DNA from: Candidatus Pacearchaeota archaeon
GTDB lineage: Archaea; Nanobdellota; Nanobdellia; Pacearchaeales; DTIR01
Direction of reading: 5' to 3'
Assembly: GCA_018303805.1 (NCBI GenBank)
Contig: JAGVXL010000001.1
Location: forward strand, 506,164 to 570,163
Length of the DNA: 64,000 bases
The notes beneath the pieces were generated by a model, which saw only the letters and a list, made by a program, of their open reading frames with translations, had not been told where the DNA came from and made no database searches. Positions 6,774-49,612 of this stretch are shown in pieces. Made by a program: the position numbers and the translations under genes. How positions within the stretch are numbered: position 1 is the first letter of the stretch; each line of letters opens with the position of its first letter.

Positions 6774-6778
6774 AAAAG

Positions 6779-6906
6779 TGCGGGGGATAGGATTTGAACC
6801 TATGCAGGCACTAAGCCACTAGCTTTCTGAGATTTTTTCTTTCCGAGGTTTCTTCCTGAGAAAGCTCGCCTAAGGCTAGCCCGTTTGGCCGCTCCGGCAC
6901 CCCCGC
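6779..6906 (-). tRNA. tRNA-Leu(TAG) with 44-nt intron at 37/38 (6825-6868)
   Basis: Hand fold: acceptor GCGGGGG/CCCCCGC-A; anticodon stem CTAGC/GCTAG; loop CT-TAG-G|intron|A; long variable arm; T-loop TTCAAAT. Confidence 0.93.
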
Positions 6907-10765: not shown

Positions 10766-11341
10766 ATGAAAGTCAGGAAAGAAGGCAGGCAAGTTAAGAA
10801 AAAACCAGCTGACAAGGAAAAGAACAAAATCTTCAAGGTAGTATTGGCGGGAGAGAGGGTTTTTTCTAATGCCAAGGAGGCATTTACCTTATATGATTCA
10901 AGCAGGTTAGGCGAGCCAAAGGAAGGCAAGGTTTATTATTCCCTTGTTGAAACGCTTTACTTGCTTGAAAAAGGAAAATTGCAGGTTTACAAGGGCAAGA
11001 AAAAAGTTACAAGCAACATGTTCCTGAAAGAGGCCCAGCTTCTTGAAAATAATTTCCATACAAGGTTTATTGTTTTTAGGGACATGAGAAACAGGGGCTA
11101 TATAGTCAAAACTGCTTTAAAGTTTGGTGCCGATTTCAGGGTTTATGAACGGGGCGTTAAGCCTGGGCAAGAACATGCAAAGTGGATTCTTTATCCCGTT
11201 TTTGAATCCACTAGCTTAACATGGCATGAGTTCGCTGCGAAAAACAGGGTTGCGCATTCAACAAGAAAGAAGCTCCTTATAGCAATTGTCGATGATGAAA
11301 ATGATGTAACTTATTACGAGGTAGCATGGAGAAGGCCTTGA
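10766..11341 (+). CDS. endA: tRNA-intron (splicing) endonuclease, single-unit
   Basis: YSLVETLYL, DMRNRGYIVKTALKFGADFRVY (catalytic Tyr), EH (His, 10 residues later), KNRVAHSTRKK (Lys). Confidence 0.95.
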   Translation: MKVRKEGRQVKKKPADKEKNKIFKVVLAGERVFSNAKEAFTLYDSSRLGEPKEGKVYYSLVETLYLLEKGKLQVYKGKKKVTSNMFLKEAQLLENNFHTRFIVFRDMRNRGYIVKTALKFGADFRVYERGVKPGQEHAKWILYPVFESTSLTWHEFAAKNRVAHSTRKKLLIAIVDDENDVTYYEVAWRRP

Positions 11342-12831: not shown

Positions 12832-12900
12832 GATTTTTTCTTTCTTTTTATTTTTTATATTCTTCTTATTCAGAATTTTGCAGAAAGAAATCATGTGTGA

Positions 12901-12999
12901 TGGCTGTGGGCGGAGTTGAACCGCCGACATCTGCCTATCCCGAATCAATGAAGCAATGATTTCATGAGAGCAGCGCTCTGCCAACTGAGCTACACAGCC
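12901..12999 (-). tRNA. tRNA with CAT anticodon (elongator Met or Ile2), 26-nt intron at 37/38 (12937-12962)
   Basis: Acceptor GGCTGTG/CACAGCC-A; loop CT-CAT-G|intron|A; T-loop TTCAACT. Met versus agmatidine-Ile2 not resolved. Confidence 0.88.
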
Positions 13000-13015
13000 A
13001 TGGCATTAAGAAGAA

Positions 13016-18541: not shown

Positions 18542-18722
18542 AGCGGGGAGAGGGACTCGAACCCTCGAATAAGAGCTTGCTATTGTAGTTTCTCTACCTT
18601 CCTAGAGTTTCTCTCCGCGAAAAGCTGTGCTTTTCGGGGCACAGGAAAACTTTGTTTTCCTCTGTTTCTAAAGAGAAACTGTAGACTGCAGGCTCCCGCC
18701 GTAGCCACTGGGCCACCCCCGC
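18542..18722 (-). tRNA. tRNA-Cys(GCA) with 108-nt intron at 37/38 (18578-18685)
   Basis: Acceptor GCGGGGG/TCCCCGC with U73 discriminator; stem GGAGC/GCTCT; loop CT-GCA-G|intron|A; T-loop TTCGAGT. Confidence 0.9.
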
Positions 18723-18825
18723 GTGAAACATTAAATAGGGGTTTATTTTTAAAGTTTGTTAGGCAAGCTAGGCAAGCAGGGCAAGCAAGAAAAAGATTTA
18801 AATCGTTGCAGCAATTAAAGAGCAT

Positions 18826-18909
18826 ATGGAAGCCATAATAAAACTTGAAGATGTTTGGAAAATTTATAGTCTTAGTGAAACAAACCTTCCTGTTCTGAAG
18901 GGGCTGCAT
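18826..18909 (+). pseudogene. N-terminal remnant of a LolD/MacB-type ABC ATPase
   Basis: ATG 18826 reads MEAIIKLEDVWKIYSLSETNLPVLKGL, then runs into the antisense tRNA-Arg before any Walker A; promoter-like AAAAGATTTAAAT upstream. Confidence 0.65.
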
Positions 18910-18923
18910 TTTCATTTTAAAAA

Positions 18924-19145
18924 TGGGCCCGACAGGATTCGAACCTGCGACTTCTTGCTTTCTTTCCTTCTATTGTAGTTTTTCTACCTTCCTAGAGTTT
19001 CTTTTTCCGCGAAAAGCAGGCAATCCTCGCCGAAGCGAGCATCACGGGCTTTTCGGGGCACAGGAAATCTTTGATTTCCTCTGTTTCTCTAAAAAGAAAC
19101 TGTGGATAGAAGGCAAGCGCTCTATCCAAGCTGAGCTACGGACCC
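18924..19145 (-). tRNA. tRNA-Arg(TCT) with 147-nt intron at 37/38 (18960-19106)
   Basis: Acceptor GGGTCCG/CGGGCCC-A; stem CTTGC/GCAAG; loop CT-TCT-A|intron|A; T-loop TTCGAAT. Confidence 0.9.
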
Positions 19146-49411: not shown

Positions 49412-49448
49412 GTTTGATATATGGTGGCCTATTTTATAAATATTAAGA

Positions 49449-49563
49449 TGGGCCTAAGAGGATTTGAACCCCTGTCTCTCGGTTTCTTTCGTTTTTCTTC
49501 GAGGTCTTTTTTTAAAAGAGCTCTCCGAAGCCGAGTGCCCTATCCAGGCTAGGCGATAGGCCC
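49449..49563 (-). tRNA. tRNA-Arg(TCG) with 41-nt intron at 37/38 (49484-49524)
   Basis: Acceptor GGGCCTA/TAGGCCC-A; stem CTCGG/CCGAG; loop CT-TCG-G|intron|A. Confidence 0.9.
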
Positions 49564-49612
49564 AAGCAATTCCAGGCAAAAGGAATTTAAAAGGTTAATC
49601 ACTTTTCCCTGC

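Follow-up and report, generated by a model that had tools for sequence, protein, structure and literature searches.

Closely similar composite introns in tRNA-Cys and tRNA-Arg of a Candidatus Pacearchaeota archaeon and their kinship to a dispersed hairpin repeat

Two tRNA genes with closely similar introns

In a stretch of 64,000 nucleotides (nt) from the Candidatus Pacearchaeota archaeon assembly GCA_018303805.1 (contig JAGVXL010000001.1, positions 506,164 to 570,163; hereafter the window), the genes for tRNA-Cys(GCA) and tRNA-Arg(UCU) are each interrupted by a long, structured, non-coding intron. An original prediction, made from the letters of the window, had described the two introns as nearly identical, and the present analysis followed it up in the genome and in its relatives. 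The window lies on a single contig of 575 kb (genome 1-575132; 38% G+C) from a metagenome-type assembly, which is unclosed, begins within a gene, contains 87 N and has an estimated completeness of 77%. The comparison set consisted of 201 genomes from 100 genera of the order, coded G001, G002 and so on, with G001 belonging to the same genus. Positions are those of the window unless given as genome positions. The two genes are laid out as follows:

18542..18722, minus strand: tRNA-Cys(GCA) gene, with 5' exon 18686-18722, intron 18578-18685 (108 nt) and 3' exon 18542-18577
18924..19145, minus strand: tRNA-Arg(UCU) gene, with 5' exon 19107-19145, intron 18960-19106 (147 nt) and 3' exon 18924-18959; Rfam tRNA 46.8 bits

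Both introns sit after nt 37, between positions 37 and 38. Joining of the exons gave clean cloverleaf structures of tRNA-Cys(GCA) and tRNA-Arg(TCT), and the joined exons agreed base for base with intron-less orthologues at the junction. The exons are those of ordinary tRNAs and are mutually unrelated. Alignment of the introns, on the other hand, showed 99 matches and 9 mismatches (91.7% identity); further differences were two 2-nt indels and, in Arg, a 30-nt insert and a 10-nt extra tail. With one intron as the BLAST query against the genome, the other was recovered at E = 4.5e-19 (23 matches overall), so the likeness is not due to chance. These results bear out the predicted resemblance between introns of unrelated tRNAs; the range originally given for it, 18578-19106, has the final base of the Cys intron at one end and the initial base of the Arg intron at the other, both genes being on the minus strand. 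The predicted folds of the two pre-tRNAs had energies of -77.1 and -87.4 kcal/mol (z = -5.3 and -5.8), and 0 of 200 shuffles were as good.

When ARAGORN was run with introns allowed, 31 tRNA genes were found in the genome, more than half of them interrupted. Both genes were detected in this way, mis-typed as Gly(gcc) and SeC(tca); a default tRNA scan missed both, and the Rfam tRNA model detected the Arg gene only. Cys and Arg-UCU are each represented by one gene in the assembly, and neither ARAGORN nor a search with joined exons revealed a second copy.

The intron has a composite build, in which a backbone, a P2-P3 module and a 30-nt hairpin are nested. The backbone is 56 nt long, 5'-CUACAGUUUCUCUUUAGAAA ... 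AGAGAAACUCUAGGAAGGUAGAGAAACUACAAUAG-3' (ends CUACAG ... CUACAAUAG), and its pyrimidine/purine hairpin is followed by a spacer and another run of purines. Within the loop of the backbone hairpin lies P2-P3, a 50-nt two-hairpin module (CAGAGGAAAnCAAAGnUUUCCURUGCCCCGAAAAnn-loop-nnUUUUCGCGGA). The P3 loop, in turn, holds a UUCG-capped 30-nt hairpin in the Arg intron and in two further introns of this genome, in tRNA-Glu and tRNA-Ser, and the Cys intron is without it. In the window the parts are placed as follows:

18665..18684, minus strand: backbone 5' part of the Cys intron (CUACAGUUUCUCUUUAGAAA), the pyrimidine arm of the outer hairpin
18614..18664, minus strand: P2-P3 module of the Cys intron, with a short ACA loop on P3; covariance model R1, 79.2 bits
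18580..18613, minus strand: backbone 3' part of the Cys intron (GAGAAACUCUAGGAAGGUAGAGAAACUACAAUAG), comprising the purine arm, the spacer, the second purine run and the CUACAAUAG end
19084..19105, minus strand: backbone 5' part of the Arg intron (CCACAGUUUCUUUUUAGAGAAA)
19006..19083, minus strand: P2-P3 module of the Arg intron with its nested insert; covariance model R1, 69.8 bits
19018..19047, minus strand: 30-nt UUCG-capped hairpin (CCGUGAUGCUCGCUUCGGCGAGGAUUGCCU), the insert in the P3 loop of the Arg intron, absent from the Cys copy
18970..19005, minus strand: backbone 3' part of the Arg intron
18960..18969, minus strand: 10-nt tail specific to Arg (AAGGAAAGAA), which pairs with the anticodon loop to give the central helix and h' of the splice motif

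The backbone is confined, in this genome, to four tRNA introns, those of Cys, Arg-UCU, Glu-CUC (genome 119806-120029) and Ser-UGA (genome 305459-305710), and P2-P3 is nested at the identical point of the backbone loop in all of them. Their pairwise identity is 86-93%, the tRNA-Ser(UGA) intron being nearest to that of Arg, and they are mosaic: the Cys intron shares its outer-stem variant with Glu and its 3' end, AAUAG, with Arg. What follows the backbone is a short tail private to each intron, and it pairs with the anticodon loop of the respective tRNA. Identical copies of the 30-nt insert of Arg are found at genome 315865 as well as in the introns of Glu and Ser, and a near-identical 30-mer lies flipped in P2 loops at genome 249595 and in G001. 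In tRNA-Ser(UGA) the P2 loop of the intron holds one more insert, in which strings resembling boxes C and D occur (CUGAUGAUGG ... CCUGA).

Distribution of the modules and empty sites in relatives

The intron searches that the original prediction had suggested recovered further copies both in the genome and across the order. A 60-nt backbone query matched 18 of the 201 genomes, in 14 genera and 5 families, with up to 98% identity. In the tRNAs of these relatives the backbone occurs without P2-P3, begins right after nt 37 (plus 0-1 nt) and is always in the sense orientation; its hosts are tRNA-Trp, Gly-GCC, Cys, His, Ser-GCU, Ser-UGA, Lys-CUU, Lys-UUU, Asn and Thr-GGU. It was also found 3 nt past the end of tRNA-Ala in G001 and beside the 5' end of 16S genes. 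A sequence following tRNA-Val was considered as another copy and rejected, since on reading it proved to be a different element. A metagenome scan for the junction between backbone and P2-P3 located the composite in two tRNAs on two contigs of one metagenome, tRNA-Asp(GUC) and tRNA-Thr(GGU), at 93.5% and 90.7% identity to the Cys intron, respectively. These contigs had no other match to this genome at E<=1e-20.

The inner module is more widely dispersed. Covariance model R1 detected about 26 P2-P3 sites in this genome, and P2-P3 was matched in 48 of the 201 genomes and 32 of the 100 genera, in introns and, for the most part, between genes. Within a single family, genomes differed in copy number, the lowest count being 4 and the highest 27 or more. 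In an alignment of 23 copies from six genomes, 94% of the cells were paired and 11 of the 20 pairs had changed on both sides; 0 of 500 shuffles were as good, and slid controls gave 31-56%. The covariance model proposed at the outset could be built for this module, and covariation supports both of its helices. The stems contained 14 G-U and 16 A-C cells among 1206, without asymmetry. Because both kinds of cell are equally rare, the stems behave as near-perfect palindromes, unlike typical RNA helices. One reversed P2-P3 copy lies inside the apparent 5' domain of a 23S rRNA gene (L030:1480-1539, G036 contig 1), where it may represent either an rRNA intron or an expansion segment.

Empty tRNA sites were sought with joined exons in the relatives, and empty intergenic sites by aligning joined flanks. 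Intron-less alleles, another check put forward with the original prediction, were present in sister genomes for both tRNAs. tRNA-Cys is intron-less in G001 (exons 97% identical), G003, G005, G006, G007, G010, G014 and G039; in G004 it has a 38-nt intron of another backbone type, and in G002 an unrelated 115-nt intron. tRNA-Arg(UCU) is intron-less in G001, G002, G003, G005, G007, G014 and G039, and contains other introns of 25-90 nt in G004, G010, G013, G023 and G033. Five intergenic copies could be compared with relatives in the same way:

secE / spt5 (genome 87679-87813): the genes overlap as ATGA in G001 and G002; here a 135-nt insert lies between duplicated AAATGA
S8 / L6: about 9 nt in G001; 93 nt here
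rpoH / rpoB: 8 nt in G001; 164 nt here
TATA box to rpoP start (genome 249590-249756): adjacent in G001 and G003; an insert of about 150 nt here
L1 / L10: contiguous in G003; 141 nt here

Since relatives are empty at the orthologous gene junctions, the intergenic copies are lineage-specific insertions, not conserved leaders. At secE/spt5 the insert splits an overlapping stop and start, and the duplicated AAATGA (6 nt) preserves both codons (comparison locus L158 in G001). At the fourth site, an array of five hairpins, about 150 nt long, separates a TATA-like box from the start codon of a gene for a small zinc-ribbon protein, taken to be rpoP. The corresponding box of G001 and G003 is found about 25 nt ahead of the rpoP ATG, as in a leaderless mRNA, and the insert would give rpoP a long structured leader.

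The surroundings of the two tRNA genes were also inspected. Between them, at 18826-18927 on the plus strand, lie 34 codons from the N-terminal part of an ABC-transporter ATPase (MEAIIKLEDVWKIYSLSETNLPVLKGLHFHFKNG), a relic that stops where the 3' end of tRNA-Arg starts; a full-length copy is absent from the genome. In G003 the N-terminus of the ABC-transporter ATPase adjoins tRNA-Cys, and tRNA-Arg is 4.6 kb off. From this arrangement and the relic, a deletion therefore probably made tRNA-Cys and tRNA-Arg neighbours here. Just upstream of tRNA-Cys, on the opposite strand (18757-18790, plus), there are short imperfect tandem repeats (aggcaagctaggcaagcagggcaagcaag). Three more intron-bearing tRNAs occur in the window, all on the minus strand: Leu-UAA at 6778-6906 (intron 44 nt), Met-CAU at 12899-13000 (26 nt) and a gene at 49447-49564 (41 nt) that ARAGORN called SeC(tca), probably a mis-typing.

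Splicing and the origin of the introns

Removal of archaeal tRNA introns at a bulge-helix-bulge (BHB) motif calls for an endonuclease, and one is encoded in the window:

10766..11341, plus strand: EndA tRNA-splicing endonuclease, 191 aa; PF02778 (N-terminal) 40 bits, PF01974 (catalytic) 96 bits; the only copy found

With EndA encoded, the joined exons normal and no other Cys or Arg-UCU gene in the assembly, splicing of both introns is plausible, and sole-copy tRNA-Cys and tRNA-Arg genes would need it. Among the four introns, that of Glu forms a perfect hBHBh' motif and that of Ser has a central helix with 4 of 4 pairs.

In the reading that we consider reasonably probable, a small non-coding repeat, which forms hairpins and resembles miniature inverted-repeat transposable elements (MITEs) and repetitive extragenic palindromic (REP) sequences, spreads at the DNA level, and the introns of Cys and Arg are two of its copies. 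Copies landing between genes would be tolerated there, and those landing just after nt 37 would be tolerated where the pre-tRNA still folds a BHB-like motif and EndA excises them. The family would be non-autonomous, with its modules nesting in one another's hairpin loops. Both introns would have been gained in this lineage after its split from the same-genus relative, probably by copying from another resident copy, with recombination between copies to follow. The composite anatomy, the repeat family, the empty sites and the EndA gene are observed; splicing, movement at the DNA level and the donor copy are what we infer. Signs of DNA-level behaviour are the two orientations of the intergenic copies and of the 30-nt hairpin, together with the near-equal G-U and A-C counts in the stems. 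The original prediction had offered a mobile element that targets position 37/38 and is removed by EndA. Intron-less orthologues, the same element in many tRNAs and an EndA gene 7 kb away all agree with that proposal, which has to be revised on other points: the build is nested, with three modules, the inner module is mostly intergenic, and splicing and movement stand as inferences.

Several results weigh against a repeat that spreads through DNA. A clear target duplication was seen in only one of the five empty-site comparisons, and none was clear at S8/L6, rpoH/rpoB, rpoP or the tRNA sites. No match to the Y1/RAYT transposases (PF01797), the single family tested, was found in the assembly, with the control positive in 7 genomes. 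Pattern scans and BLAST detected no copy of the repeat on viral contigs or in phage or plasmid records; one viral-contig match from three exact-pattern scans was discarded as chance, lying in GC-rich coding DNA and reaching 16.6 bits with the model. Both introns fall short of a perfect BHB motif: in Cys, 3 of 4 pairs form in the central helix and h' has 0 bp; in Arg, again 3 of 4 form (C-G, U-A, U-A, CxA) and h' has 2 bp, the mismatch being C35xA in both. The sole EndA looks like the homotetramer type, judging from domain architecture only, and homotetramer-type enzymes are the kind with strict specificity. RtcB ligase gave no match in the assembly in a six-frame search with PF01139 and a motif scan, from which, the contig being unclosed, absence from the organism does not follow; the control search was positive in 10 of 14 control genomes, including all 4 archaeal ones. 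Because the two motifs are imperfect, the single EndA is homotetramer-like and no RtcB was found, splicing of these introns is to be regarded as putative. It is a separate observation that the assembly has no RtcB match although more than half of its tRNA genes are interrupted and EndA is encoded.

The form of the module raises further difficulties for such a repeat. In 59 of 61 non-redundant copies, the partner of a C at one position of P3 is C, U or A, a strand-specific mismatch. A P2-P3 intron in tRNA-Gly(UCC) (genome 415222-415427) is orthologous in G000, G001 and G002, and in these three genomes it retains both hairpins through compensatory changes. Together, the mismatch and this retention indicate a structural constraint that could act on RNA. 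Moreover, P2-P3 stands in sense in all 12 of its intron copies, which purely random insertion of DNA does not predict, unless antisense copies are unspliceable. Sense-only introns, the C mismatch and high identity across families leave room for a role at the RNA level or for horizontal spread. The tRNA-Gly(UCC) gene, which ARAGORN mis-typed, contains a second intron of 22 nt in the D arm, and its orthologues in G001 and G002 are without it.

A broader form of the DNA-repeat reading can be put forward tentatively, and we hold it with less confidence than we would need to prefer it. The nested hairpin modules may be an archaeal counterpart of introners, that is, DNA-level mobile repeats that make new tRNA introns, move between distant ultrasmall archaea and are directed into hairpin and anticodon loops by an enzyme, which perhaps recognises the pyrimidine/purine hairpin and the mirror purine run. 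It is suggested by the 91-93% identity of the composite between organisms without any other similarity in nucleotide sequence. If true, it would provide the first traceable source of archaeal tRNA introns. Members of the repeat superfamily share the purine arm of the outer hairpin (R1, here an arm and not the covariance model), a YYNGG-type spacer and then a purine run, R2. A genome-wide scan for mirror repeats was dominated by noise, and the following figures come from restricted scans. Among 78 informative hairpins, R2 was a perfect mirror of R1 in 14 and a perfect direct copy in 3; the mirror fitted better in 26 and worse in 12. Examples are found at genome 52536, 87740 and 139524 and at loci L124, L153 and L167. 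A switch from C-G to U-A in the backbone stem was accompanied by G to A at the mirrored R2 position in 16 of 18 copies (by eye), which could equally be explained by two sub-lineages of the element. The order R1, spacer, R2 is the one expected of a fold-back triple helix of the purine motif, which the element may form.

The first alternative to DNA-level spread assigns a function as a structured RNA to the two-hairpin module or to the intron as a whole. It would be either a protein-binding site or a stable and possibly circular RNA that would also be made from intergenic copies, the tRNA introns being one route of expression. We regard this as unlikely, in spite of evidence in its favour. Covariation is strong in both hairpins, the C mismatch is strand-specific, the tRNA-Gly(UCC) intron has been kept by compensatory change, identity across families is 91-98% and the nested hairpin carries a UUCG tetraloop. 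To the uniform sense orientation of the introns can be added a modest excess of co-oriented copies between co-directional genes, 13 against 4 opposed here and 14 against 9 in relatives (27 against 13 in all). A conserved RNA does not, however, agree with orthologous tRNA and intergenic sites that are empty in the closest relatives, with the wide variation in copy number inside one family, with one third of the intergenic copies lying antisense to their neighbours, or with a flipped 30-nt hairpin. G-U pairs are not in excess over A-C, and Rfam searches of P2-P3 and the introns, at the gathering threshold and at E<=10, returned tRNA only and no snoRNA or sRNA. Empty sister sites, intergenic copies in both orientations and the lack of a G-U excess likewise leave without support the other half of the original prediction, a conserved functional RNA released as a circle. 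Inspection of sequences and folds found no C or D boxes in the Cys copy, and in the Arg insert a GUGAUGC string without a D box or K-turn geometry; a C/D box or K-turn in the 30-nt insert was dropped as a candidate after the strings would not fit by hand.

Gene conversion among pre-existing repeats, instead of fresh insertion into each tRNA, could also make the introns alike. The mosaic pattern of the four introns and the nearness of the Arg intron to that of Ser point in this direction, and so does the distance of only 200 nt that separates the Cys and Arg genes following the probable deletion. Conversion requires, though, that an intron was already present at each site, and the same-genus orthologues and most of those in the order have none. 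Because the orthologues are intron-less, the first arrival at Cys and Arg was an insertion and conversion explains later homogenisation only; as the main source of the similarity we find it improbable.

It is very improbable that the intron spreads through RNA, being excised, perhaps as a circle, re-inserted into a pre-tRNA by the reversed action of endonuclease and ligase, and then copied to DNA. Such a route would account for a backbone that lies at the splice position after nt 37, always in sense, in more than 20 tRNAs of many types. We know of no such re-insertion reaction; the ligase was not found in the assembly, and no reverse transcriptase turned up, although none was specifically searched for. 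The backbone is also present outside splice sites, by tRNA-Ala and 16S genes, and the inner modules enter hairpin loops in either orientation as well as intergenic DNA. Finally, a misassembled duplication, which the original prediction had named as its possible undoing, or dead tRNA genes would be barely credible even in an unclosed metagenome-type assembly with 87 N, given 9 substitutions, indels and a 30-nt insert between the copies, two more diverged copies on the same contig, different and intact exons 88-97% identical to intron-less orthologues, related copies in independent assemblies and no other Cys or Arg-UCU gene in this one.

Comparison with known systems

The DNA-level repeat favoured here has counterparts among several known kinds of element. 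REP, bacterial interspersed mosaic element (BIME) and REPIN sequences are bacterial and are mobilised by RAYT (Y1) transposases. The present repeat is like them in being a short imperfect palindrome with tens of copies, which occupies operon spacers in both orientations, is clustered or nested and is variably present between close genomes. It is unlike them in that the assembly has no Y1/RAYT gene, its copies double as tRNA introns, and its form combines two hairpins with a conserved C mismatch and an outer hairpin that precedes a mirror purine run. Prokaryotic MITEs, such as the SM elements of Sulfolobus, are small, non-autonomous, non-coding repeats with lineage-specific expansion. Small size, lack of coding capacity and lineage-specific expansion are shared by the family described here, and a 6-nt target duplication was found at one site. 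In contrast to MITEs, it has neither the usual terminal inverted repeats nor a matching full-length insertion sequence, its target duplications are inconsistent across sites, and its modules insert into the hairpin loops of other modules.

Eukaryotic introners are spliceosomal introns derived from transposons. As with introners, a repeat family would found new introns here since the splicing of the host can remove each copy. Splicing would be carried out by protein only (EndA and a ligase) and the targets are tRNAs, which makes this an analogy and not homology. Archaeal tRNA introns can also be functional, and the tRNA-Trp intron of Euryarchaeota encodes a C/D box guide RNA. Our introns resemble functional ones in being long, structured, non-coding and placed at 37/38; unlike the tRNA-Trp intron, the Cys copy has no C/D boxes, and there is no Rfam match.

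The closest parallel is offered by Thermoproteales. Kinship between introns of different tRNAs has been put down there to transposition by an unknown mechanism, probably at the DNA level (Fujishima et al. 2010, summarised in PMC4090602). Families that cross isotypes make up 28% of Thermoproteales introns and 1.5% of Asgard introns (bioRxiv 10.64898/2026.10.13.758758, 2026). The same preprint tested copying, mobile elements and reverse transcription in Asgard archaea and left the route of arrival open (bioRxiv 10.64898/2026.10.13.758758). Like the transposed BHB introns of Thermoproteales, those reported here are at least 80% identical across isotypes in one genome, have unrelated host tRNAs and were gained recently relative to sister species. 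They differ in belonging to an ultrasmall archaeal lineage and in being long (108-170 nt), modular and all at 37/38. A further difference lies in the inner module: most of its copies are intergenic and sister genomes have empty sites, which ties the introns to a dispersed repeat family. A literature search found no paper describing this modular family of repeats and tRNA introns.

The gain of tRNA introns in archaea is an open question, the Thermoproteales cases having been known since 2010 without a mechanism. What is added here is another archaeal lineage, a modular nested intron and a direct tie to intergenic insertions with empty sites. There is also a consequence for annotation, since default tRNA finders missed or mis-typed both genes. 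One sequence family is seen in three states, as new tRNA introns, as free copies by tRNA and rRNA genes, and as inner-module insertions between essential genes, and the question of intron gain thereby becomes testable within one small clade by comparing filled with empty sites.

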